Positions 5,935-37,502 of a DNA stretch of 64,000 nucleotides are shown here, one piece after another. Made by a program: the position numbers and the translations under genes. The notes beneath the pieces were generated by a model that made no database searches, had not been told where the DNA came from, and was given only the letters and a program-made list of their open reading frames with translations. Origin of the DNA: Patescibacteria group bacterium. Lineage in GTDB: Bacteria > Patescibacteriota > Minisyncoccia > UBA6257 > 2-01-FULL-56-20. The DNA lies in NCBI GenBank assembly GCA_018971305.1, contig JAGXBC010000001.1:173956-237955 (forward strand). Reading direction: 5' to 3'. Numbering within the stretch: the stretch's first letter is position 1; each line of letters opens with the position of its first letter.

Positions 5935-6615
5935 CTATTGTTGCCTACTTATCGTCCTATAGTAAGTAGACGGCCCACCATTTCCGGCCCTTTCTATGAG
6001 CCCCCGGGAAAGCAAATTTTGCATATCGTAACGCAACGTTCTTTCGCTAACACCAGGCAATATACCCTGTATTTCCTTCAATCGGCAATTGCCGTTTTGC
6101 CGTATTCTTTCCAATATTGCCGATTGCCGCATTTCCGATTTAATATAGTTGCCGCTTCCATTATCTAATTGACCATAATCAGAGTTATCCCGATTAACAG
6201 TGTTTTCAACGGTTAAATCTTTTGCCGTATTATCTTCAGTTGAATTAGTAATAGATGATTTATCGTATCCGGAAAATATATCATCCAATTTTATCTCATC
6301 TATTTTTGCCGGATTATCATATTCGGCAATTGCCGAATTTAGACCATATAATTCAGATATCACCTTATCAGAATTTGCCGGATGGAAAACCCCGACATCA
6401 GCTCCAAATCTTAGCAATCTTTCTAGGTTATCAGATGCCGAAAACATCGCAACCCGATCTTCGGAGGAAAATGCCCCCAAGACGATAAGCGCCGCGTCTT
6501 CCGCTTTATCCCTAAAACTTCCACTATTGACAGAGGACGCCATTCTCCAGACGGCATAGGCAACTTCATATGCTTTCTTTGTTAAAAACTTATCCTGATT
6601 ATTTATCCTGGACAT
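5935..6615 (-). CDS. Hypothetical protein with C-terminal winged-helix (DeoR-like) HTH
   Basis: 226-aa ORF. The C-terminus RQSAILERIRQNGNCRLKEIQGILPGVSERTLRYDMQNLLSRGLIER resembles a DeoR/HTH_11-type DNA-binding domain. The middle is a D/N/S-rich linker. Confidence 0.5.
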   Translation of the reverse strand: MSRINNQDKFLTKKAYEVAYAVWRMASSVNSGSFRDKAEDAALIVLGAFSSEDRVAMFSASDNLERLLRFGADVGVFHPANSDKVISELYGLNSAIAEYDNPAKIDEIKLDDIFSGYDKSSITNSTEDNTAKDLTVENTVNRDNSDYGQLDNGSGNYIKSEMRQSAILERIRQNGNCRLKEIQGILPGVSERTLRYDMQNLLSRGLIERAGNGGPSTYYRTISRQQ

Positions 6616-8494: not shown

Positions 8495-11143
8495 CTAATT
8501 GAATACCAAAGAGTCAAGGCGGAAATTTACCTTTACCTTGCTGCCATCTTTCAGTTCCCCGCGGATAATCTTGTCTGCCAATTTATCCAAAATAACCTTC
8601 TGCATTAAGCGCTTAAGGGGGCGCGCTCCATATTCAGCGCTAAAACCTTCTTTAATAAGATATTCGCGGGCAGTTTCGTTCACATCAATTTTAATTTTAT
8701 GGGCATCAAGACGCTTCTGGATCATATCAATCTGGATATCAACTATTTTGCCCAAGTCCTCTTTATTTAGGGGGTTGAAAATCACGATCTCATCTATCCG
8801 GTTCAAAAATTCCGGCCGGAAGCTCTCCCGCAGTGATTCCATAACTTTTTCTTTATAGCCGCCATCCTCGCTATCGCGGCTTATTTCATTATTTGCTGCG
8901 CTGAATCCGAAACGAGACATACCCTTCAAATATTGGCTGCCGACATTTGAGGTCATAATGATTATGGCGTTCTTGAAGTTGACAACCTTGCCTTTGCCGT
9001 CGGTGATGCGCCCGTTATCTAAGATCTGTAGTAACAAATTGAAGACCTCCGGGTGGGCTTTTTCTATTTCATCAAAAAGTATCAAGCTGTATGGCCTGTG
9101 GCGCACTACTTCCGTAAGCTGCCCGCCTTCGTCATAACCGACATAACCCGGTGGCGCTCCAATCAAGCGGCTGGTGGCATGTCTCTCCATATATTCGGAC
9201 ATATCTATGCGCACAAGAGCTTTTTCATCGTTGAACATAAACTCGGCCAGTGCCTTAGCGAGCTCTGTCTTACCGACCCCGGTAGGACCAAGAAACATGA
9301 ATGAACCCAATGGACGATTCTCGTCAGAAAGGCCGGCTCGAGCCCGGCGTAAAGCGTTAGCCACGGCTTTTATGCCGTCCCCTTGGCCGACAACTCGGTT
9401 ATCCAATACATCTTCTATCCTCACGAGCTTGTCGCTTTCTGATTCCAGCATGCGCCGAAGAGGAATACCGGTCCAAACGGAAACCACGGCGGCGACATCC
9501 TCTTTATCCACCGATTCCTTAAGGAACGATTCGTCGGTTGATTTTTTACCCTTCTTGGCGCGAATAGCGCTGAAGTGTTTCTTTTCAAAAGCGGTGAAGT
9601 CTTTTTCGGATTGCGGCAGTTCTCCGTACATTATCTGCGCCGTACGCTCAAGGTTCCCTTCGCGCTCCGCAATTTCGGCTTCACGCTTAAGATTGTCAAC
9701 TTTTTGGCGGAGCTGATGCAGTGTTTCAAACTTGATTTTCTCGGAATGCCAACGCGCGGAAAGCTCGTCATTTGTTTCTTTAAGACCTTTAAGGCCTTTA
9801 TCAATTTCCTTAAGACGCCCGCTGTTGTTTTTTTCTCCCTCTTTACTAAGGGCTTGGCGTTCTACTTCCAAGCGCGTGATATCGCGGCGGATGCCGTCTA
9901 TCTCTTTCGGCAAGCTTTCCGTCTCCAACCTGCGGGCAGCAGCCGCTTCGTCTATCAAATCAACCGCTTTGTCCGGCAAAAATCTATCTGTAATATAGCG
10001 GGATGACAGATTTACCGCCTCAATTATAGCTTCATCCGATATCCGCAAACCGTGATGAATTTCGTATTTTTCCTTTAGGCCTCGCAAAATGGCGATGGAA
10101 TCTTCAATAGACGGCTCTTCAACTATAATCGGCTGAAACCTGCGCTCCAGTGCCGGATCTTTTTCTATATAGCGCTGATATTCGCGGATAGTCGTAGCTC
10201 CGATTGTGTGAAGCTCGCCGCGCGCCAAAGCCGGCTTTAAAAGATTAGAGGCATCTACCGCGCCTTCAGCGGCTCCCGCACCAACGATCGTGTGGATCTC
10301 GTCTATAAAAAGAATTATCTGTCCCGAAGCGTTTTTTATTTCATTAACGAAAGCCTTAAGGCGGTCTTCAAATTCTCCGCGGAATTTAGTACCGGCGATG
10401 AGCGACCCCAGATCTAACATCAAAATTTTCTTATCTTTAAGCGGCTCCGGTACGTCGCCGGAGACTATTCTTTGAGCAAGCCCCTCAACAATGGCGGTCT
10501 TCCCGACTCCGGGTTCTCCGATAAGCGCCGGGTTGTTCTTCGTGCGGCGAGAGAGAACCTGCATCACGCGTCGTAACTCTTCTTCGCGGCCGATGACCGG
10601 ATCAAGTTTTCCGGCCTTAGCTTTTTCGGTTATATCTATAGAATATTTTTCCAGAACCTGGAACTTGCTCTCTGGAGTTTCGTCGGTAATCCGCACGGAG
10701 CCCCTAAGCTGGGCCAATGTCCGCCAAACAGCTTCGCGGCGAACGGCAAACTGGTCTAAAACATTTTTTGCCGCCGAGGGAACCTCTAGAATGGCAAGAA
10801 GCATATGCTCGCAGGAAACAAATTCGTCTTTCTGTTGAGCGGCAACTTTTGCAGCCTGATCCAAAACCTTCATTAACTCCTGGGAAAGATAAAGCTGGCC
10901 TACCGTAGAATTGGCCACAAGCCGCGGCAAGCGGCTCAGTTCCAAATCAACGTTTTCTGCCAATTTTTCTACATTTATTCCTATCCTATTCAGGACAGGA
11001 ATAATTAGAGACGATGGGTCTTCTAATAGTGACGCCAAAAGGTGAAGCGCCTTAAGCTCCCCATGACTTTTCTTGGCCGCAAGTTCCTGGGCGTTCTGCA
11101 AGGCTTCCTGGGCTTTGATTGTGAAACGATGGAAGTTGGGCAT
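8495..11143 (-). CDS. clpB: Chaperone ClpB (two AAA+ domains plus long coiled-coil M-domain)
   Basis: 882 aa. D1 Walker A GEPGVGKT and Walker [10 protein letters not shown]2 Walker A GPTGVGKT. Long coiled-coil middle region. N-terminal Clp_N repeats. Confidence 0.92.
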
Positions 11144-28556: not shown

Positions 28557-29549
28557 ATGAAACCAATTCTTGTTTCCGGCATCCAGACTTCAGGCCGATT
28601 GCACCTTGGCAATTATTTGGGCGCCTTAAAAAATTTTGTTGACCTGCAAAATTCGGGAAAGTACGATTGTTATTTTTTCTTAGCCGACTTACATTCATTA
28701 ACCGAGGCGTTCAATCCAGAAGATAAACATAAACAAGTCATTGAACTGGCCGCGGATTTTCTGGCTGCCGGCCTGGACCCCAAGAAATCCGTTATCTTCC
28801 AGCAATCGCAGGTCCCGGCGCATACGGAACTCGGATGGATTTTCAATACGATTACGCCATTCGGAGAATTAAACAGGATGACACAGTTTAAAGAGAAATC
28901 CGACGCGCAAAAAGAAAATGCGAATGTCGGGCTTTTAACTTATCCCACTCTGATGGCCGCCGACATTCTTTTATATGACGCCAAATTTGTGCCGGTTGGC
29001 GACGACCAAAAACAGCATTTGGAACTCACGAGAACTATCGCCCGTAAATTCAACGCCAAATTCGGCGAAACTTTCACGGAGCCACAACCACTATTTACAG
29101 CAGCCACTCGGGTGATGAACCTTGGCGAACCGGAGCGAAAAATGTCCAAGTCGCGCTCGCATCCACAAAACGTGATTTTCGTTGACGACTCGCCGGAAGA
29201 AATTTCCGCCAAAATAAAATCCGCCGTAACAGACTCCGGCTCGGAGGTTAAGTACGACATCAAAAACAAACCCGCAATAAGCAACTTGCTTACTATCTAT
29301 TCCGCCCTAAGCGGAGAAGCCATCCCTAAACTGGAGAAATATTTCACAGGGAAAAAGTATTCAGAGTTCAAAGTTAAGCTTGCAGAGCTGATATCCGATT
29401 ACTTCGCGGATTACCGCAAGAAGAAAAAGTTATTACTCGCCAAACCGCAGACACTTATAACAACGCTCAAATCCGGTTCAGCCAAAGCGGCAAAAGTTGC
29501 CGACAAAAAGATACACGAAGTTAAAAAAATAATAGGATTGGCGATTTAA
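28557..29549 (+). CDS. trpS: Tryptophanyl-tRNA synthetase
   Basis: SGIQTSGRLHLGNYLGA (HIGH region) and KMSKS at ERKMSKSRS. 330 aa. Confidence 0.9.
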   Translation: MKPILVSGIQTSGRLHLGNYLGALKNFVDLQNSGKYDCYFFLADLHSLTEAFNPEDKHKQVIELAADFLAAGLDPKKSVIFQQSQVPAHTELGWIFNTITPFGELNRMTQFKEKSDAQKENANVGLLTYPTLMAADILLYDAKFVPVGDDQKQHLELTRTIARKFNAKFGETFTEPQPLFTAATRVMNLGEPERKMSKSRSHPQNVIFVDDSPEEISAKIKSAVTDSGSEVKYDIKNKPAISNLLTIYSALSGEAIPKLEKYFTGKKYSEFKVKLAELISDYFADYRKKKKLLLAKPQTLITTLKSGSAKAAKVADKKIHEVKKIIGLAI

Positions 29550-32500
29550 ATCTTCCTTACAGCCAACCAGGAATCCGCGCCGTTAACCTTCGTTTCCGCC
29601 TCCGCTTCAAATTTTTCCGATTTTTTATATTCTATCGCTTCGGCTCCGACCTCAACTTTCAAAACTTTTTCGTACTTGTAGATTGCGAGACGCACTTCCG
29701 CCGGCAACTGGGCCATCAATATCATTTTATCCTTCGGCTTAAGCCCGGATTTTTGCCGCAGCTCCTGAACGGCCCTTATTATCTCCCGCAATATACCCTC
29801 TTCGCGCAGTTCCGGCGTGACAACGGTATCCAGTTCAATTTCTTCCTTAAATCTGGCACTGAAAACAACTTTCTTAATATTCACCTCTTCTGCTAAAATA
29901 CCAAGCAATTCTTTGGGAATCTTCAGCTTTCCGGTTTTAACCCTGAGTTCACCGAGAGGCTGACGGACTTTTATTCCCGCCTCCGCCCGCTTGGCCAATC
30001 CCAAACTAGCCAAACGCCTCACTTCGGCCATTCCTTCCAGTAATTTAGAATTTTGAGTTTTTAATTTTGGTTTTGTCTCCGGCCAATCTTCCAAATGAAC
30101 TGATTCCTGCGTTCCGTTAAGTTCTCCGTAAAGTAATTCCGAAAAGAATGGTGCGAAGGGAGCTGTTAGTTTCGCCGTTTCACGCAGAACCAAGCCGAGT
30201 GTGGCGCAAGCCGAATCAAAATCCTTGGCGCTCTCCGGTTTTTGCAAGCGCCGGCGCGAACGGCGGATATACCAGCGCGACAGATCGTCAACCAACTTCT
30301 CTATAACAAGCGCGGCTTCTCTTATTTCGTATTTATCCAGGTGCTTTGTGGTATCGGCAACAGTTTCTCCGAGCCGAGACAGAATCCATTTGTCCAGAAC
30401 ATTGGTCGAGGATGGAATTTTATCTCCCGAACTTTTCTCGCTCGCATATGTTTTATAAAATACCAAACTGTTCCAAAGAAGCATGTGCATCCTGCGGTAT
30501 GTTTTCGAAATCTCGTTCTCGTCAAAATTTTTTGTCTCGCCCGGAGGATTCACGGTATAGAAATACCAGCGGACGGCATCAACTCCGTATTTATTGATAA
30601 CCTCCCAGGGGTCAACTATATTCCCTTTGGACTTGGACATTTTCTGCCCGTGCTTATCGTTTATCAGCCCCAAAGAAACAACGTTCTTATATGGCGCCGG
30701 GTATCCCAAAGATGTAGCAACTGCAAGCAGGGTGTAAAACCATCCTCGCGTCTGATCCATTGCCTCCGAAATATAATCTGCCGGATAAGCGCGGCTTTTG
30801 TCTATAGCATCCTCATTCTCAAAAGGATAATGCTGCTGAGCGAAAGGCATTGAGCCGGAATCAAACCAGACGTCAGCTACTTCTTTGACCCGTCCTGTTC
30901 TCGCGCCGCATTGCGGGCAGGCAATATGGATACCATCGGCATATGGCTTGTGCAGGTCTATAACTCCAGTACCATCACGGGGCACTATCTTTAGAGTTAA
31001 CTCTCTTGTTTCAGCTACGCCGATAAAATCCTGGCCACGGCTTATTTTTTCCCGTATAGCGCGTTTTTCATCCCATGCTTCCGCCGCGTGCGTAAGCATC
31101 CAGATCGGATACTCATGGCTCACGAGCAGGATATTCTTGCCGCGGTATTTTTTTTCCAATTCCTGCAAAATTTCCCAAACCCGACTGCGCAAATCGCGCA
31201 GGGACTCGCCTCCTTCCGGCTTGCCCTCAAACTTTGATTCGTATGTGGGAAAAAGCTTATGGTAGCGGCTATCACGGCCCCCCTGAAGCATTGAACCCAA
31301 ATCTACCTCGCGCAGACGTTTGTCGAAAACTACTTTTTTGACGCCCAATGCCTCCGCCGCAATCTCGGCTGTTTCTTTTGTCCGGATTATGTCCGAAGAA
31401 ACGATGACGTCTATTTTTTTTCTGCTGCTTTTTAGTTTCTGCAAAAAATTTTTCGCCGACTTTTCCGCGAGCGAGCGGCCGATAACGGTCAAAGTGTTGT
31501 CTTTAGACCAACCGGAATCAATAAAGTGTTCGGCGTTGCTTTTCGCCTCTCCGTGCCGCATAACCCAATAATTATTCCTGGAACCTCCGGCAAGCTTACT
31601 GAGCTCGTCAATGCCTCCCGCCACTTCGCAGTGATTGCATTTTTTGCATTCCCAGATCGGTAACGGCGTTCCCCAGAACCGTTCACGGGAAAAATTCCAA
31701 TCTTTAACCTCACGCAGCCATTCGCCGAAACGCCCCTGTTTTACGTATTCCGGCGTCCAATTGATTTTATTGTTATTGGCTATAAGCTGCTTCCTTAAAC
31801 CGCTCATGGCTACGAACCAGGAATTTCTTGCGTAATATAGAATTGGCGTGCCGCACCGCCAGCAGTAGGGATAATCATGCTTGTAGGGAAGAACTTTCAG
31901 GAGCGAACCGCGCTGTTTTAAATGTTCAACGATGCCAGCCTCGGTTTCCTTGGACTTCGCGAACAGGCCGGAGAAACCAGAAACGTCCTTAGTGAACTTC
32001 CCAACTTCATCAACCGTGTGATACCTCGGTAAGCCGACTTTAAGTCCCAGCTGATAGTCATCTTCGCCGTACATAACCGCAGTGTGGACTACCCCGGTTC
32101 CCTCTGTCGTATTAACAAAATCGGCGTCGTAAACCTTGTACGAACTTGGCGAACGCAATGCCGGAATTTCAAAAAGCGGCTCGTAGCTCAGGCCGATAAG
32201 TTCGTTCCCCTCAAAAATCTCCCTCAGGTCGGGGGCGGAACCAAAAATAGCGGGATTATTCTTAACGGCTTCCTCAGCTACAATCCAACGCTCTATTTTC
32301 CCGTCAATCATCTTCTTCAGTACGGCGTATTTGATGTTTTTACCAACGGCCAAAGCCACATTTCCTGGGAGCGTCCACGGCGTAGTCGTCCAGGATAAAA
32401 CATACGTATCATCTCCCGCCGAGAAATATCCGCCGATTTTCTGCCCCCTCTTCAATTTGAATTTTATATAAACGGAGTCATCAGTAGTTTCTTTGTAACC

Positions 32501-33076
32501 CAAAGCAAGCTCGTGCGAAGAAAGCGACGTGCCGCAGCGCACGCACCAGGGAACTACCTTATGTCCCTTATAAAGAAGTTTTTTTGTCCAAAAGCGCTTT
32601 ATTATCCACCAAAGAGTTTCTATGTAGGAGCTTTCGTAAGTTATGTAAGGGTCTTTCAGGTCCAGCCAAAAGCCCATCCGTTTTGTGAGGCGCTCCCATT
32701 CGTCTTTGTATTCCCAGACGGACTCGCGGCATTTTTTATTGAAGGCCTCAACGCCGTAGTTTTCAATGTCCTTTTTCGTTTTCAGGCCCAATTGTTTTTC
32801 CACCCCTATCTCCACGGGCAATCCGTGCGTGTCCCAGCCGCCTTTTCTCGGAACCAAATAGCCCCGCATCGCCTTGTAGCGTGGGATTATGTCTTTGAAG
32901 GCACGAGCCAGAATATGGTGCACGCCCGGCCTGCCGTTAGCAGTTGGCGGACCCTCGTAAAATATGAACTTTTTAGCGCCTTTCCGCTTAGCGAGAGTTT
33001 TTGCAAAAATGTCGCTTTCGTTCCAAAATTTCAAAACTTTTTCCTCCTCCTTGGGAAGATTGAATTCTTCGGGCAT
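29546..33076 (-). CDS. ileS: Isoleucyl-tRNA synthetase (type 2) carrying an internal histidine-phosphatase-family domain insertion of about 200 aa (residues about 502-705)
   Basis: The HIGH-region PPTANGRPGVHH, CP1 editing domain and DVWFDSGSMPFAQ / KMSKS region are present. RHGE...RTKET...SHE phosphatase motifs sit between CKKCNHC and IACPQCG. Confidence 0.9.
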   Translation of the reverse strand: MPEEFNLPKEEEKVLKFWNESDIFAKTLAKRKGAKKFIFYEGPPTANGRPGVHHILARAFKDIIPRYKAMRGYLVPRKGGWDTHGLPVEIGVEKQLGLKTKKDIENYGVEAFNKKCRESVWEYKDEWERLTKRMGFWLDLKDPYITYESSYIETLWWIIKRFWTKKLLYKGHKVVPWCVRCGTSLSSHELALGYKETTDDSVYIKFKLKRGQKIGGYFSAGDDTYVLSWTTTPWTLPGNVALAVGKNIKYAVLKKMIDGKIERWIVAEEAVKNNPAIFGSAPDLREIFEGNELIGLSYEPLFEIPALRSPSSYKVYDADFVNTTEGTGVVHTAVMYGEDDYQLGLKVGLPRYHTVDEVGKFTKDVSGFSGLFAKSKETEAGIVEHLKQRGSLLKVLPYKHDYPYCWRCGTPILYYARNSWFVAMSGLRKQLIANNNKINWTPEYVKQGRFGEWLREVKDWNFSRERFWGTPLPIWECKKCNHCEVAGGIDELSKLAGGSRNNYWVMRHGEAKSNAEHFIDSGWSKDNTLTVIGRSLAEKSAKNFLQKLKSSRKKIDVIVSSDIIRTKETAEIAAEALGVKKVVFDKRLREVDLGSMLQGGRDSRYHKLFPTYESKFEGKPEGGESLRDLRSRVWEILQELEKKYRGKNILLVSHEYPIWMLTHAAEAWDEKRAIREKISRGQDFIGVAETRELTLKIVPRDGTGVIDLHKPYADGIHIACPQCGARTGRVKEVADVWFDSGSMPFAQQHYPFENEDAIDKSRAYPADYISEAMDQTRGWFYTLLAVATSLGYPAPYKNVVSLGLINDKHGQKMSKSKGNIVDPWEVINKYGVDAVRWYFYTVNPPGETKNFDENEISKTYRRMHMLLWNSLVFYKTYASEKSSGDKIPSSTNVLDKWILSRLGETVADTTKHLDKYEIREAALVIEKLVDDLSRWYIRRSRRRLQKPESAKDFDSACATLGLVLRETAKLTAPFAPFFSELLYGELNGTQESVHLEDWPETKPKLKTQNSKLLEGMAEVRRLASLGLAKRAEAGIKVRQPLGELRVKTGKLKIPKELLGILAEEVNIKKVVFSARFKEEIELDTVVTPELREEGILREIIRAVQELRQKSGLKPKDKMILMAQLPAEVRLAIYKYEKVLKVEVGAEAIEYKKSEKFEAEAETKVNGADSWLAVRKI

Positions 33077-33103
33077 AGATTAAAAATATCACGTTATTCG
33101 TAT

Positions 33104-34072
33104 CTATTCAAAAAATCTGCTGCGTATTTTATGGGTATTGCCATGGCTCAAAAGTCCAAGATAAGCGTTAATCGTCGCTGGCGCTGGGTTGGCTATTACC
33201 ATCTTTAACATTCTTCTTCTCGTCGTTGTCCGAAAAACACGGTGATCAGGAAAATTTATCCACCCCAAAAAATCAACTCCGGACGCAATGGTATTTATGA
33301 AAATTTTATTTGGATGAAGCGTAAGTCGCAATTTATTTTCCAAAAATTCTTTTATTTTTGGAACTAGAGATTCCAGCAATCCGCGGTTCTCCGAGAAAAT
33401 AACGAAGTCGTCCGCATAACGTATATAGTGCCTTGTTTTCAGTTTGTGCTTCACAAACTGGTCAAACTCGTTCATATAAACATTTACAAAGAGTTGTGAA
33501 GTGAGGTTGCCGAGCGGTAAACCTTGTCCAGGCGCGCTTGATGAAAAACTCTCGATAACTCTTTCCAGGAGCCGCAGCGTATCAGCGTCTGGGATATATG
33601 AACGTAGAATATCAAGGAGGACGGCGTGGTCGATGTTGGCAAAAAACTTTTGAATGTCACACCTGAGAACCCAGGAGGTACGCGTATTGTTCTTACTAAT
33701 AATGCGGGCGAACGCGCGAAAACGATTCATTGCGGCATGCGTTCCTTTTCCGACTCGGCATGAGAACGAATCAGCTATGAAAGTTTTATCGAAGAACGGA
33801 TAGAGCACCCGGTAGATGGCGTGATGGAGTAAGCGGTCGCGGACGGTTGCCTTGTGGATATTCCGCGGTTTCGGGTCGCAGATGTTGAATGCTTGATACC
33901 CACCGTGTCGGTACGCACCGTTCAAAATATCCGCGCGAAGTGATAGAATGTTATCCATAAGGCGCGATTGGAACTCCTGCACATCACGTTTCCCGCTCTT
34001 GCCGCGCAAAAATTCCCTCCAGGCCTCAAGCAGGTTTTCCACGCTTATGATTTCCTCAAATTTATGAACCAT
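33104..34072 (-). CDS. DGR-type reverse transcriptase
   Basis: The RT domain carries YADD (YIRYADDFVIF). Motif 4 reads LPLGNLTSQLF, the [I/L]GxxxSQ signature of DGR RTs, rather than the QGxxxSP of group II introns. It is about 322 aa from Met 34072, with no maturase or endonuclease domains. The ORF-track extension to 34264 is antisense to avd. Confidence 0.8.
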   Translation of the reverse strand: MVHKFEEIISVENLLEAWREFLRGKSGKRDVQEFQSRLMDNILSLRADILNGAYRHGGYQAFNICDPKPRNIHKATVRDRLLHHAIYRVLYPFFDKTFIADSFSCRVGKGTHAAMNRFRAFARIISKNNTRTSWVLRCDIQKFFANIDHAVLLDILRSYIPDADTLRLLERVIESFSSSAPGQGLPLGNLTSQLFVNVYMNEFDQFVKHKLKTRHYIRYADDFVIFSENRGLLESLVPKIKEFLENKLRLTLHPNKIFINTIASGVDFLGWINFPDHRVFRTTTRRRMLKMVIANPAPATINAYLGLLSHGNTHKIRSRFFE

Positions 34073-34460
34073 CTTAATTTTCACAATAAAAATTTTCAAG
34101 TAACTCCCCCCCCCCCGACACATCACGCTTCCTATCATCCAACACCTGGTAGCGGCGTACAAAACCTGGCATGAATTTCTGCCGCATGTACCCAAGGATG
34201 CGAGATACTCGTTAGGAACTAAGGTCGACGCTTCGTTTATAGAAACGATTGAAGCGGTATTCACCGCAAGCTATCTCAGTAGAGAGAGTAAACTTCCTTA
34301 TCTCGAAAAAGCTGCCGCGAAACTGGACATGGTTAAATTCTTTCTCCAGATAATCTGGGAAGTCAAGGCGCTCGACAATAAAAAATATATTACACTCTCG
34401 GAAAAGCTGGATGAAATAGGCAGAATGCTCGGCGGATGGCTTAGGAAAATGTCTACTTAA
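34064..34460 (+). CDS. avd: Avd-like accessory variability determinant (four-helix-bundle / 23S-rRNA-IVS family). Frame is interrupted at a C11 tract (34106-34116).
   Basis: The downstream frame encodes HITLPIIQHLVAAYKTWHEFLPHVPKDARYSLGTKV...LDEIGRMLGGWLRKMST*, whose C-terminal EIGRMLGGWL matches the Avd EVGRILGSWI motif. The only upstream ATG (34064) is in a different frame. C10 or C13 would fuse them into a 132-aa protein. Confidence 0.6.
34106..34116. repeat. Poly(C)11 homopolymer tract at the 5' end of avd
   Basis: Eleven consecutive C residues counted directly. The tract lies between the ATG at 34064 and the conserved Avd coding frame. Confidence 0.9.
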
Positions 34461-34505
34461 ACCATTCCGCCGGACATCGCCCGTTGTTTTCATTTGCTGC
34501 CAATT

Positions 34506-34624
34506 ACTCGCGACGCGACCGTTGCGATTGAAGTCGTTGTCAAGCCAGTTCCAGTTCAGGTACCAGCGCTCGCCGTTCTGATTGAGGTAGGGAACGTTCC
34601 GGTTGCCGTTCGCGTTCAGCACGA
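34506..34624 (-). repeat. DGR template repeat (TR), about 119 bp
   Basis: Near-identical copy of 34966-35084. It is Asn-codon (AAC) rich on the minus strand (...NANGNRNVPYLNQNGERWYLNWNWLDNDFNRNGRVAS). Confidence 0.8.
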
Positions 34625-34886
34625 ATGTGCGCAAGGCCGTCCGGGCCACCATCCTTCGAGTCACAAACAAAAACCATACTCTCGGGATTGTATCGTATTC
34701 GGAATTTTGAATTCCTTAGCCTCGCACACCAAGTAGCAACAATTATGAAGCGATTAACGAATGCACGCTAGGAGAAAACCCGTCCTCCCCCATTCCGGCA
34801 GACGCCATCGCGGAATTCGATGCGCACAACCTTAGCCGTGCGCATAATATCTACTATCCATAAGGATTATATCAAAAAAATTTAAT

Positions 34887-34908
34887 GGGCCCTAACGAAT
34901 TAGGGCCC
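34887..34908 (-). terminator. Perfect 9-bp GC hairpin (gggccctaa-cgaa-ttagggccc) about 55 nt 3' of the VR. Candidate DGR homing cruciform and/or terminator of the target gene.
   Basis: Exact inverted repeat with a 4-nt loop. On the minus strand it is followed by attaaattttttt. Confidence 0.55.
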
Positions 34909-34959
34909 AAGGGTTGAGGGTTCAAGCGACACAAAGGATCTGAGTCACAAGAACCAATG

Positions 34960-35580
34960 CTACTTGCTCGCGACGCGACCGTTGCGATTGAAGCCGCAGT
35001 CAAGCCAGCTCCGGCCCAGGTACCAGCGCTCGCCGTTCCGACTGAGGTAGGGAACGTTCCGGTAGCCGTTCGCGTACAGCACGACCAAACCCGGAAAATC
35101 GATGTAAACTTTTCCGAGAAGGGACATGAATACGGGGAATTCATCCTGGTGCTCAACAAGCCAAACGGCCTGCTGGTAACCCAGGACAAGATTCCGGCGG
35201 GACACGAGCCTGCGCTCGTATTCGCTGCCAACGATAGACTTCTCGTCAGAACGCAACAATGTGCCAAGACGGAGAATAACTTCATCGGTTGGCGAAGAGT
35301 CGGACTCGATTTTTTCGATCTGAGAGAACGCCCTGCGGAGTTCCTCGAGTGTCGGCTGCTTCAGGGCTGGAATCCGAACGGCGACATCTTCCATCGTCTT
35401 CCAGAATTCCAACATCTTGATCTCGGCGTTGCCGAGATAGATGTCACGGACGCCTGAAAGGTTGGTGCCGGTTGAAAGCCATTTTACAAAATCGGGCGTG
35501 CAACCATTCCGCTCAAGCGCATGATCGAATTCTGCGGCTTGGCGAGCAAACATGACGGGTTGAGACTTGTCATTAGGCAT
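34960..35580 (-). CDS. DGR target (variable) protein, 206 aa, with the C-terminal 40 aa encoded by the VR
   Basis: Strong RBS (AAAGGAGGA) upstream. C-terminus ...LYANGYRNVPYLSRNGERWYLGRSWLDCGFNRNGRVASK* aligns with the TR-encoded peptide. No obvious signal peptide. Confidence 0.75.
   Translation of the reverse strand: MPNDKSQPVMFARQAAEFDHALERNGCTPDFVKWLSTGTNLSGVRDIYLGNAEIKMLEFWKTMEDVAVRIPALKQPTLEELRRAFSQIEKIESDSSPTDEVILRLGTLLRSDEKSIVGSEYERRLVSRRNLVLGYQQAVWLVEHQDEFPVFMSLLGKVYIDFPGLVVLYANGYRNVPYLSRNGERWYLGRSWLDCGFNRNGRVASK
34966..35084 (-). repeat. DGR variable repeat (VR) at the 3' end of the target gene
   Basis: 12 mismatches to the TR over 119 bp. Eleven are at plus-strand T positions, which are adenines on the coding (minus) strand. 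Confidence 0.8.
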
Positions 35581-35653
35581 GACATGTCCTCCTTTTCTAT
35601 GCGACGTGTTCCAGATTAGGAACGTGTCGCGATGCCACTGGCTCCCCCGATCA

Positions 35654-35717
35654 AACTGGGTTTTGCCATAGCAGAAAACTATCCGATTGCCTAGAGCTTA
35701 TCGAAAGGCTTTCTGCT
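35654..35717. repeat. 16-bp perfect inverted repeat (tttgccatagcagaaa / tttctgctatggcaaa) with 32-nt spacer in the argS-to-DGR-target intergenic region
   Basis: The arms at 35654-35669 and 35702-35717 are exact reverse complements. The element is located 75-140 nt upstream of the target-gene start and just downstream of the argS stop. Confidence 0.6.
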
Positions 35718-35774
35718 ATGGCAAATGTAAATAAATCAGGTTTTCAAAGTACGCTACAATTATACACCATATTA

Positions 35775-37502
35775 CTATATTCTGTCAATAGCAGTGATTC
35801 CCAATAAATTCAGCCCTTTTTCTATGATTTTCGCCGTTATATTAATAAGCCCAAGAAGCGCGCTCCGCCGACTGGCGGATTCTTCTTTGAGTACCGGCGT
35901 GGTTTCGTATAAACGGTTAGCCAACACGGCCAGCTTATAAAGATAGTTAGCTAGGTTGCTCGTCTGCAGTGTTTCCCCACTTCGCGCCACTTCGTCGGGA
36001 AATTCAAAAATTTTCCGAGCGAGCGCAAGTTCAACATCAGAATTTAATAATGTAAAGTTCTTGCTTTTAGGTTTTAGAGCTTGGGACTTTCTTAAAATAC
36101 TCTTAAGGCGGGCATACGTGTACTGCAAATACGGCCCGCTGTCTCCGGAAAAATCCAGCATTCTTTTCCAGTCAAAAACGATGTCGGTTGTGCGTCCCTC
36201 CCGCAAATCATTGTATTTCAAGGCTCCAACGGCAACCGCCTCAGCGATTTTATCTTTTTCTTTAGCCGATAATTCTTTATTTTTTTCTTCAACAATCTCC
36301 CTCGCCAGCTTGATAGCCTTACCTAAAACCTCTTTAAGTAATATGGTCCTCCCTTCGCGTGTAGCGAGCTTTTGGCCGCTCTCCCCTAGAACCAAACCGT
36401 ATTTAACGTGCTTGAGTTCAACCCCATCGGCCAATCCAAGAATATTAGTTATGGCGAAAAGCTGTTCAAAGTGCAGAGATTGTTCGTTGCCCACAACATA
36501 TAAAATTTTCTCCGGCTTATATTTTTTGACACGGTATTCAATATTCGCAATATCGCGCGTAAGGTAAAGGGATGCTCCATCCGCTTTTTCTATTAACGCC
36601 GGAGGCAGATTGAACTTATCTAGTTTTATAACTATCGCGCCCTCGCTTTTTACGGCGACGCCGTCTTGCACAAGGCGCGAAACAAGCGGCTTCATATCTT
36701 TCTCAAAAAAGCTTTCGCCTTTCCATTCGTCGAACTCTACACCGAGCTCTTTATATGTTCTCTCGAATTCTTTAAGCGATTCTTTTTTAAACCATTGCCA
36801 AAGCTTGCGGTTTTCCTTATCGCCTTCTTCTAATTTTTTGAATTCTTCCTGGCCCTCCAGCTCCAATCCCGGGCGGGACTTCATCTCGTCGTGAAAGCGG
36901 ACGTAGAGCTTCTGCAATTCCTCTATTGGTTTTTCTTCTATCTTTTTCTTATCGCCCCACATTTTATAGGCGGCGATAAGTTTGCCGAACTGCGTCCCCC
37001 AGTCGCCCAAATAATTCCAGCGGATAACTTTATATCCCAGTGATTCAAAAACATTGGCAAGCGCCGCGCCGATTATCGTTGTCCGCAAATGGCCCACGTG
37101 CATCATCTTCGCGATATTCGGCTGAGAATATTCAACGATAACGGTTTTGCTTTTTCCAATACTTCTCTCGCCATATTTTTTTATATTCTTGGTAACCATG
37201 GCCAATTCGTTTTGCAGCGCTTCAGGTGAAAACCAAAAGTTTATAAATCCCGGCGCAGCGGCTTCAACTTTTTGGAAAAACCCAGCCGGCGCAGCGGCAC
37301 TAATTTTCTGCACCAATTCCCTGGCCAGTTCAAGAGGATTTTTCTTTTCCCGCTTAGCCAAAACCATAGCCAAGTTCGTGGAATAATGGCCGAAGTTTTC
37401 TTGTTCCGGAACTGTAACGCTAAAATCTCTGCCATCGGAAAACTCGGATAAAATTTTTATTATCTTATCTTTCATTACCATTAAGAATAATATAAAAAGC
37501 AA
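35775..37502 (-). CDS. argS: Arginyl-tRNA synthetase
   Basis: HVGHLRTTIIG (HIGH) plus the N-terminal Arg_tRNA_synt_N-like domain and the C-terminal DALR anticodon-binding region. The true start may be an internal Met (MKDKII at about 37475). Confidence 0.88.
   Translation of the reverse strand: MLFILFLMVMKDKIIKILSEFSDGRDFSVTVPEQENFGHYSTNLAMVLAKREKKNPLELARELVQKISAAAPAGFFQKVEAAAPGFINFWFSPEALQNELAMVTKNIKKYGERSIGKSKTVIVEYSQPNIAKMMHVGHLRTTIIGAALANVFESLGYKVIRWNYLGDWGTQFGKLIAAYKMWGDKKKIEEKPIEELQKLYVRFHDEMKSRPGLELEGQEEFKKLEEGDKENRKLWQWFKKESLKEFERTYKELGVEFDEWKGESFFEKDMKPLVSRLVQDGVAVKSEGAIVIKLDKFNLPPALIEKADGASLYLTRDIANIEYRVKKYKPEKILYVVGNEQSLHFEQLFAITNILGLADGVELKHVKYGLVLGESGQKLATREGRTILLKEVLGKAIKLAREIVEEKNKELSAKEKDKIAEAVAVGALKYNDLREGRTTDIVFDWKRMLDFSGDSGPYLQYTYARLKSILRKSQALKPKSKNFTLLNSDVELALARKIFEFPDEVARSGETLQTSNLANYLYKLAVLANRLYETTPVLKEESASRRSALLGLINITAKIIEKGLNLLGITAIDRI

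Follow-up and report, generated by a model that had tools for sequence, protein, structure and literature searches.

In the diversity-generating retroelement (DGR) of BPP-1, an RNA called Sp binds RT-Avd and primes the cDNA. It is a folded RNA that lies 3' of the template region (TR), and in the avd:Sp duplex a segment upstream of the TR pairs with one downstream of it (Handa et al. preprint 10.1101/2023.10.23.563531). The closest described systems to the one reported here are the DGRs of the candidate phyla radiation (CPR). The architecture called B3, TR-(avd)-RT, with the accessory variability determinant gene (avd) on the reverse strand between the TR and the reverse transcriptase (RT) gene, made up 90% of the CPR set of Wu et al. 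2018 (PMC5758913), and a CPR-restricted DGR clade 2 was described by Roux et al. 2021 (PMC8144416). We analysed 64,000 nucleotides (nt) of DNA from a Patescibacteria group bacterium (assembly GCA_018971305.1, contig JAGXBC010000001.1, positions 173,956 to 237,955 of the forward strand). This whole stretch is called the window below; positions are counted from its first letter, and features are on the minus strand unless another strand is given. An initial annotation, made from the sequence alone, had noticed a pair of repeats with the signature of mutagenic homing. We conclude with high confidence that this pair represents the TR (34498-34624) and the variable region (VR; 34958-35084) of a chromosomal DGR in a Patescibacteria (CPR) genome. 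Read along the minus strand, the target gene with its C-terminal VR was followed by a terminator, the TR, avd (on the opposite strand) and the RT gene. Thus, the locus matched the B3 architecture and fitted clade 2, which supported the DGR interpretation, and it is a further DGR of an already known CPR type.

Our repeat search returned an ungapped direct repeat of 127 nt with 89% identity and an offset of 460 between the TR, which contained 32 adenines, and the VR, in which the substituted span was 34994-35076. Between 34506 and 34624, the initial annotation had counted 12 mismatches and assigned 11 of them to template adenines. The exact alignment reproduced the 12 mismatches but placed 10 of them at adenines. 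The mismatch at 34553/35013 was correctly recognised as a non-adenine one, but it was not the only one because 34506 was also a plus-strand A. The bias was nevertheless strong (hypergeometric P = 8.8e-6 for at least 10 of 12 mismatches, given 29 adenines among 119 positions), and in the core of the repeat (34507-34624) 10 of the 11 mismatches were at a TR adenine (P = 1.9e-6). When the alignment was read in the reverse direction, there were no mismatches at adenines of the VR copy. The mismatches were therefore base-specific in the exact alignment and not spread over all four bases. Moreover, identity outside both ends of the repeat fell to the random level; because of this drop on either side, there was no extended homology of the tandem-duplication type, and the repeat did not continue well beyond its ends.

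All 10 adenine changes were at codon positions 1 and 2. Namely, AAC codons of the TR became TAC (twice), GGC, AGC and TGC in the VR, AAT became AGT, CAG became CGG, and GAC became GGC. The codon-by-codon comparison thus agreed with the earlier statement that TR Asn codons had been turned into Tyr, Gly, Ser, Cys and similar residues. The peptides encoded by the two copies were VLNANGNRNVPYLNQNGERWYLNWNWLDNDFNRNGRVASNW for the TR and VLYANGYRNVPYLSRNGERWYLGRSWLDCGFNRNGRVASK, followed by the stop, for the VR.

The two copies shared a GC-rich 14-mer, GGTCGCGTCGCGAG, at 34507-34520 in the TR and at 34967-34980 in the VR. The initial annotation had described the GC-rich end of the repeat as similar to an initiation of mutagenic homing (IMH) element. 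Such an end was indeed present in both copies, but its extent had been underestimated, with 9 further nucleotides that differed between the VR and the TR belonging to it. The IMH-like end of the VR (34958-34980) consisted of the 14-mer and the VR-specific 9-mer CAAGTAGCA, read from 34966 to 34958, which we call the address and which included the stop codon TAG. Its TR counterpart at 34498-34506 was the IMH*-like sequence UAAUUGGCA. Three clustered non-adenine mismatches within these terminal 9 nt (34501, 34503 and 34506) made up the difference between IMH and IMH*. The VR end ...GCAAGTAG and the TR end ...GCAACTGG differed in the same manner in the relatives. Neither further VRs nor paralogous targets were found in the window by blastn and tblastn, and there was no third copy of the repeat.

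The VR formed the final 41 codons of the target gene, an open reading frame (ORF) of 206 amino acids (aa; 34960-35580) with a Shine-Dalgarno sequence, GGAGG, 8 nt before the ATG at 35580. The target protein had no sequence match in Pfam, NCBIfam or PDB and no evident signal peptide. A protein 100% identical to it over 96% of the length was annotated in a Patescibacteria metagenome-assembled genome (320-kb contig). It had 69 homologues, each about 200 aa long. In their alignment, the columns that varied were those for which the TR has AAC codons, and G, R, P, Y, W and GRVA were conserved as scaffold residues. Residue 190, encoded at 34553/35013, was Trp in most members of the target family. The AlphaFold2 model was a confident one (predicted local distance difference test, 88). 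It had a helical part at the N-terminus, and the VR occupied the last strands of an alpha/beta domain.

RTs of DGRs possess motifs 1-7, a YxDD motif and the signature [I/L/V]GxxxSQ in place of QGxxxSP. The RT gene of the window (33104-34084) was intact and encoded 326 aa with an RVT_1 match (E=1.6e-23), YADD and LGNLTSQ; the latter was invariant in 38 RT homologues. Its start was probably the GTG at 34084 (MKIKMVHKF...), judging from relatives that began with MKI.... Homologues of this RT numbered thousands at about 70% identity, those with a named source were mostly from Patescibacteria or CPR, and the closest ones were located in cassettes with adenine-biased TR/VR pairs. The avd gene was found at 34122-34460 on the plus strand, opposite to the TR, the VR and the RT gene, and its product scored 56.8 bits against Pfam bAvd, where the cut-off was 40.

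For comparison, 21 related genome loci and 80 related metagenome loci were fetched (628 kb of sequence). Nine close relatives had the order target-TR-(avd)-RT, with 16/18 to 25/28 of the mismatches at template adenines. Across the 52 related loci with a detectable VR, 940 of 1118 TR/VR mismatches were at a template A, and avd was upstream of the RT gene on the opposite strand in every related locus that held both genes (83/83). The same layout and bias therefore recurred in other DGR TR/VR pairs. Taken together, the adenine bias, the DGR-type RT, Avd, the C-terminal VR, the IMH/IMH*-like ends and the relatives bore out the mutagenic-homing signature proposed at first. Some relatives had unusual arrangements. 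In L013, two target genes (6001-6474 and 8546-9020) flanked the cassette. In L006, L009, L010, L012, L017 and L023, the target gene had no intact RT gene nearby, and only RT fragments were kept in L009 and L012; these six have the appearance of orphan or degraded cassettes.

As a TR/VR pair, this locus adds another DGR to a lineage in which many are already known. Comparison with the relatives also brought out a structured RNA on the 5' side of the TR. An extended -10 promoter for the TR RNA, TGATATAAT, was read from the sequence at 34866-34874, and the corresponding TGnTAnnnT was conserved in eight of the nine relatives aligned. The TR transcript is predicted to begin near 34860. The spacer between the VR and the TR was 300-375 nt long and aligned well among relatives, with the terminator first, then TGnTAnnnT and, about 7 nt further on, a conserved sequence beginning with GGAUAGUAG. 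Directly 5' of the TR there was a structured RNA domain of about 235 nt with nine helices (34625-34860), which we refer to as the leader RNA.

RNAalifold analysis of 20 loci gave 52 pairs in these nine helices, 40 of them with compensatory changes. The pair cells were occupied by paired bases in 93.3% of cases compared with 37-49% in slid controls, pairs with double changes numbered 41 compared with 17-22, and the covariation score was 0.66 compared with 0.13-0.20. A covariance model that covered the 3' half of the leader RNA matched 75 of 95 sources, once per locus and always just upstream of the TR. In its alignment, 95.9% of the cells were paired and 22 of 24 pairs had a compensatory change. 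The match in the window (34620-34742, minus strand) scored 101.6 bits. All helices of the leader RNA formed in the window, including a long-range helix between 34718-34729 and 34627-34638 that stopped 2 nt before the TR. A search of 33000-36000 against Rfam (E<=1) gave no match for the leader RNA and only two spurious matches of microRNA models, in a hairpin upstream of the target gene. The covariance model also matched L006, L009, L010, L017 and L023, but not L012.

In many relatives, a GC hairpin with a T-run in the RT sense was located immediately after the TR. Therefore, the TR RNA appears to be a separate transcript that consists of the 5' folded domain, the TR and a 3' hairpin. The window itself had a hairpin directly 3' of the TR, over the avd stop codon (34430-34472, no strand assigned, z -3.0), and it is possible that it serves as the 3' end of the TR RNA and/or as the avd terminator. 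A structured spacer of the BPP-1 type was not present 3' of the TR, where only this hairpin or terminator and the antisense avd were found. The leader RNA can be considered a candidate for a new RNA family and, relative to the template, it is located on the side opposite to the BPP-1 spacer.

Immediately 5' of the long-range helix, the leader RNA contained a single-stranded bipartite motif, AUUGUUGCUACUUG (34730-34743, read from 34743 to 34730). Its 3' part, UGCUACUUG, was the exact complement of the VR address on the sense strand, and its 5' part, AUUGUUGC, paired with GCAGCAA just 3' of the TR (34494-34500); this latter pairing, of 34736-34742 with 34494-34500, included one G.U pair. The 9-mer of the address occurred at two sites only in the 64-kb window, namely at the VR end and, as the complement, in the RNA motif. 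Similar to the window, other loci possessed addresses of their own that were matched by their own RNA: CAATTCTCGT in L040, CAATTCCTG in L075, CAGGTATCTTC in L072, CAAGTAACTT in L091, CAAGTAGTTC in L088, CAAGTATCTT in L077, CAAGTAGCTTCA in L041 and CAAGTAGCAACA in L007. In L013, which has two target genes, both VRs ended with the address GGCAAGTAGCAAT followed by CTTGG repeats, and this 9-mer was found at both VR ends and in the motif.

The longest Watson-Crick run between the motif and the VR end of the same locus had a mean of 7.4-7.5 nt, compared with 5.6-5.8 (sd 0.15) after permutation, and such a value was reached in 0 of 2000 and 0 of 1000 permutations. The corresponding run against the TR flank of the same locus was 6.27, compared with 5.00 in permuted pairs (0/1000). 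Moreover, at the positions that differed between IMH and IMH*, the motif matched the VR base and not the TR base. On the other hand, several points weakened the case for a guiding role of the motif. Its match to the VR was just 5-6 nt long in many loci. The permutation tests took no account of shared ancestry, although the different compensated variants numbered at least eight. A register-based count of motif-address matches gave 47% compared with 17-26% in slid controls, a figure diluted by wrong anchoring in about 20 loci; because of this anchoring, we relied on the permutation tests instead. In addition, the partner of the motif could be the target mRNA rather than DNA.

A further feature common to these loci was a simple-sequence repeat (SSR) at the 5' end of avd. 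In the window, it was a homopolymer of eleven nucleotides (34106-34116), C11 in the avd sense and G11 in the RT sense, and the only G/C run of at least 8 nt there. Three other assemblies of the locus had C10 and were otherwise identical over 2.8 kb; one of their contigs ended in the run. The full Avd domain started at 34128. With C10, the avd ORF opened at the ATG at 34064 and encoded 131 aa, MNHLNFHNKNFQVTPPPRHITLPII..., with the family-typical N-terminus ...LNFH...PPP.... In this case, the avd start (plus strand) and the RT start at 34084 (minus strand) overlapped divergently by 21 nt. Among the relatives, the N-terminal extension of Avd often contained ...LNFH..., the antisense of MKIQ of the RT, and in L013 and L026 the start codons of avd and the RT gene shared a CATG.

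A C/G run of 6-14 nt (mode 9-10) was present at the same place in 72 of 83 related loci. Five of the other eleven carried (GT)n, (TC)n or (CTGG)n there, so that mono-, di- or tetranucleotide repeats were found in 77/83 loci, and no trinucleotide repeat was seen at the avd 5' end among the 83. In the 628 kb of related sequence, 69 G/C runs of at least 7 nt were at the avd/RT junction and 13 elsewhere. Of the runs of at least 8 nt, eight were elsewhere, and five of these represented the avd/RT site at a broken contig end; contigs often broke at the tract. Among 150 representatives of the Avd family, the N-terminal extension contained PPP in 22, PP in 11 and a dipeptide repeat (LSLSLS, RERERE) in 2, while 43 of the 150 were N-truncated gene calls. 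In the closed genome CP066687.1, an Avd ORF of 135 aa read through C10 from a TTG that overlapped the RT start. In the 73 repeat-bearing loci considered for frame, an upstream canonical start was in frame in 28 and only out of frame in 44, and in 25 of the 73 the Avd domain was complete but its present frame lacked a canonical start. It was unlikely that the poly-G forms part of the TR RNA or a priming site, because a terminator directly followed the TR in many relatives and unrelated repeats occupied the same spot in other loci.

With C11, the avd frame was closed by the TAA at 34101, with no ATG, GTG or TTG before codon 34329. This and the observations above made a slipped-strand frame switch for avd a well-founded hypothesis, based on sequence and frame logic. 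Several facts weighed against it. The in-frame upstream starts (28/73) amounted to about one third, which is the chance level, and the ON/OFF frame statistics were therefore uninformative. About 40% of the loci also had a TTG, ATG or GTG after the repeat. No variation in tract length was seen among 19 contigs from three other populations, and the difference between C10 and C11 could be an assembly error. Because the in-frame fraction was at the chance level, starts after the repeat were present in about 40% of loci and tract lengths were invariant, we do not put the frame switch higher than a hypothesis.

The constant tract length in three populations, the starts after the tract and the in-frame fraction near one third would also be expected if the homopolymer had nothing to do with frame switching but were a promoter or 5' untranslated region element for the RT gene or avd, or simply coded for an N-terminal Pro-Pro-Pro, with C10/C11 being an assembly error. 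In many loci, the distance from the tract to the RT start downstream of it was 17-21 nt, in agreement with this explanation. However, the flanks of the tract were weakly conserved and its spacing to both avd and the RT gene varied, which argued against a fixed promoter spacer and left the promoter-spacer model unsupported. The proline codons were always CCC, so that conservation was at the nucleotide rather than the protein level. Furthermore, di- or tetranucleotide but no trinucleotide repeats were located at the same spot in five loci, predicted Avd proteins carried the PPP, LSLSLS and RERERE extensions in frame, and the loci with a complete Avd domain lacking a canonical start in the present frame (25/73), as well as the frequent contig breaks at the tract, were difficult to reconcile with it. 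We consider it rather unlikely that the tract is unrelated to frame switching.

Other points counted against our reading of the locus as a DGR or against its present activity. The C-type-lectin fold expected for DGR targets was weakly supported here, and the score of Avd against NCBIfam DivGenRetAVD (77.3 bits over the whole profile) was just under the cut-off of 80. The VR sequence was the same in four independent assemblies (the window and three others), which represent consensus only and are blind to minority variants. Only 10 of the 32 template adenines were altered, the fewest among the 52 loci, and the single internal non-adenine difference, at 34553/35013, replaced TGG of the TR with CGG in the VR (W190R). 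The latter observations could be explained if the DGR is genuine but silent or decaying here, with the TR/VR differences being a fossil of earlier retrohoming and the cassette now being off through the out-of-frame avd, given that C11 leaves no start codon between the stop at 34101 and codon 34329. Some relatives were clearly degraded, with RT fragments beside the target gene in L009 and L012. On the other hand, the RT gene, the TR, the promoter, the structured RNA, the address and the Avd coding sequence were all intact, C10 in the three sister assemblies restored the 131-aa Avd ORF, and the identity of the VR among the assemblies is that of consensus sequences. We regard a silent or decaying element as rather unlikely.

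It was practically inconceivable that a tandem or segmental duplication of the gene 3' end, or paralogous gene conversion, followed by random divergence had produced the two direct copies 460 nt apart, because the mismatches were directional and concentrated on a single base of one of the copies, on one strand (P ~1e-5) and the homology ended sharply on both sides, and, moreover, the second copy lay outside any real gene beside the RT gene and avd and the adenine-biased pattern recurred in 52 loci. The chance that the RT belongs to another retroelement (a group II intron, a retron or a defence RT) with an unrelated repeat nearby was likewise vanishingly small: its top NCBIfam score was to group_II_RT_mat (142.7 bits), with weaker matches to Drt and retron models, but these scores were far below the cut-offs (300 for group_II_RT_mat and above 200 for the others), no intron or retron RNA family was found in Rfam (E<=1, 33000-36000), Avd adjoined the RT, and the closest RT homologues were in TR-(avd)-RT cassettes with adenine-biased repeats.

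On the basis of this DGR identification, a sequence of events can be proposed for the locus, in which the generic steps were taken from established DGR biology and the clade-specific ones from sequence patterns. The TR would be transcribed on the minus strand, as the 3' part of its own transcript that would start from the TGnTAnnnT promoter just after the target terminator and contain the leader RNA first. The RT (33104-34084) and Avd would copy the TR RNA into cDNA with misincorporation opposite template adenines, and the cDNA would replace the VR up to the GC-rich IMH. In this way, up to about 13 positions, most of them coded as Asn, could be rewritten within the C-terminal 41 residues of the 206-aa, cytoplasmic-looking target. 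The 5' half of the leader motif may pair with the RNA 3' of the TR and thereby loop the template, in the manner of the avd:Sp duplex of BPP-1. Through the 3' half of the motif, the RNA and any cDNA that it holds or is joined to may be anchored on the VR sense strand, directly 3' of the site of cDNA pairing, and this anchoring would select the VR, not the TR, as the recipient. Anchoring by the 3' half would fit recent evidence for pairing of the cDNA with the exposed template of the lagging strand (PMC12875486). Finally, avd would be read divergently from the RT gene, and the slippage-prone repeat would set its upstream start in frame (C10) or out of frame (C11). That target choice in this clade is RNA-guided by the leader motif and that the system is gated by the slippage repeat of avd is a tentative proposal, which we find plausible but would not yet call probable.

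If the proposal is correct, the motif guide would explain the directionality between donor and recipient, that is, why the VR receives the cDNA and the TR never does. Recognition of the IMH and discrimination of the recipient from the donor were still described as unknown in DGRs in 2026 (PMC12875486). The regulation of DGR activity is also largely open, and the avd repeat and the complementarity between template and target make both questions experimentally simple. Judging from the comparison of about 100 related loci, the leader RNA, the motif complementarity and the avd repeat are features of the whole clade. We found no description of the three in the searchable literature, to which Paul et al. 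2017 did not belong, nor any work there linking DGRs to simple-sequence repeats, phase variation or an RNA guide.

The remaining features of the locus concerned mostly the surroundings of the target gene. Upstream of it, there was a consensus match to a sigma-70 promoter, TTGACA-18-TATAAT (35759-35788, minus strand). The leader of the target gene, about 180 nt long, contained a hairpin with 26-bp arms (35662-35725) and a second one (35602-35631, both on the minus strand), with no match to an Rfam family. An intrinsic terminator of the target gene was located at 34886-34909 (minus strand; 10-bp stem, UUCG loop, T-run; z -4.5), and relatives had a hairpin and a T-run at the same position with different sequences. 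A GC-rich inverted repeat directly downstream of the IMH has been reported in about one third of DGRs (Wu 2018, PMC5758913). The hairpin of the window was 48 nt downstream of the VR and had a T-run, and because of this it looked like a terminator; the gap was occupied by CTTG(G) repeats. This post-stop stretch (34905-34957, minus strand) had three copies in the window. In the 52 related loci, 3-7 CTTG(G) copies were found in the 50-75 nt after the VR stop, about 8-fold over background, and the density of CTTG was 2.7 per 75 nt compared with a background of 0.35. The VR end contains CAAG, of which CTTG is the reverse complement.

The flanking genes were housekeeping ones, encoding isoleucyl-tRNA synthetase, arginyl-tRNA synthetase and SmpB. 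The isoleucyl-tRNA synthetase (1176 aa; 29546-33076, minus strand) had a His_Phos_1 domain inserted in its catalytic domain at residues 504-675. An ORF of 152 aa (34212-34670, minus strand) crossed the TR and was antisense to avd, and gene callers chose a 146-aa version of it in place of avd in L001 and L003. This ORF is probably spurious, yet it masks avd in automatic annotation.

With respect to known systems, the locus was the same as the CPR DGRs of the B3 architecture and clade 2 in lineage, gene order, strands, RT family and unannotated small targets, and showed no difference in kind from them. Similar to the BPP-1 DGR (mtd-avd-TR-brt), it had adenine-specific differences from TR to VR, a VR at the C-terminus of the target, a pair of Avd and RT, and a GC-rich IMH common to TR and VR followed by a short differing stretch (IMH vs IMH*). 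However, the element of the window was chromosomal whereas that of BPP-1 is phage-borne, its avd was located between the TR and the RT gene in the opposite orientation, and no Mtd-like fold could be recognised in its small target. The hairpin after the VR was also different, being 48 nt away and terminator-like. Moreover, the large folded RNA was 5' of the TR, and since Sp is 3' of the TR in BPP-1, the arrangement was mirrored. Pairing between RNA segments on the two sides of the TR is common to both systems.

The motif can also be compared with the pairing of exon-binding and intron-binding sites (EBS-IBS) in group II introns, which have a related RT family. In comparison to these introns, the system of the window had no ribozyme, splicing or endonuclease domain, its pairing was 5-12 nt, and the role of the pairing is inferred, with either DNA or the target mRNA as the partner. 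Common to both was a short single-stranded RNA complementary to the DNA target by the site of cDNA installation and covarying with this target. The avd repeat, in turn, resembled the SSR contingency loci of Neisseria, Haemophilus and Campylobacter. The gated gene here would be a component of a mutagenesis machine and not of a surface structure, three populations had fixed tract lengths, and switching at this locus is predicted only. Nevertheless, the repeats of 6-14 nt or 8-19 units were at the 5' end of an ORF and had a unit not divisible by three, in-frame and out-of-frame states both existed among natural loci, and, as in the contingency loci, two putative alleles one unit apart (C11 in the window and C10 in three other assemblies) may exist in one population.

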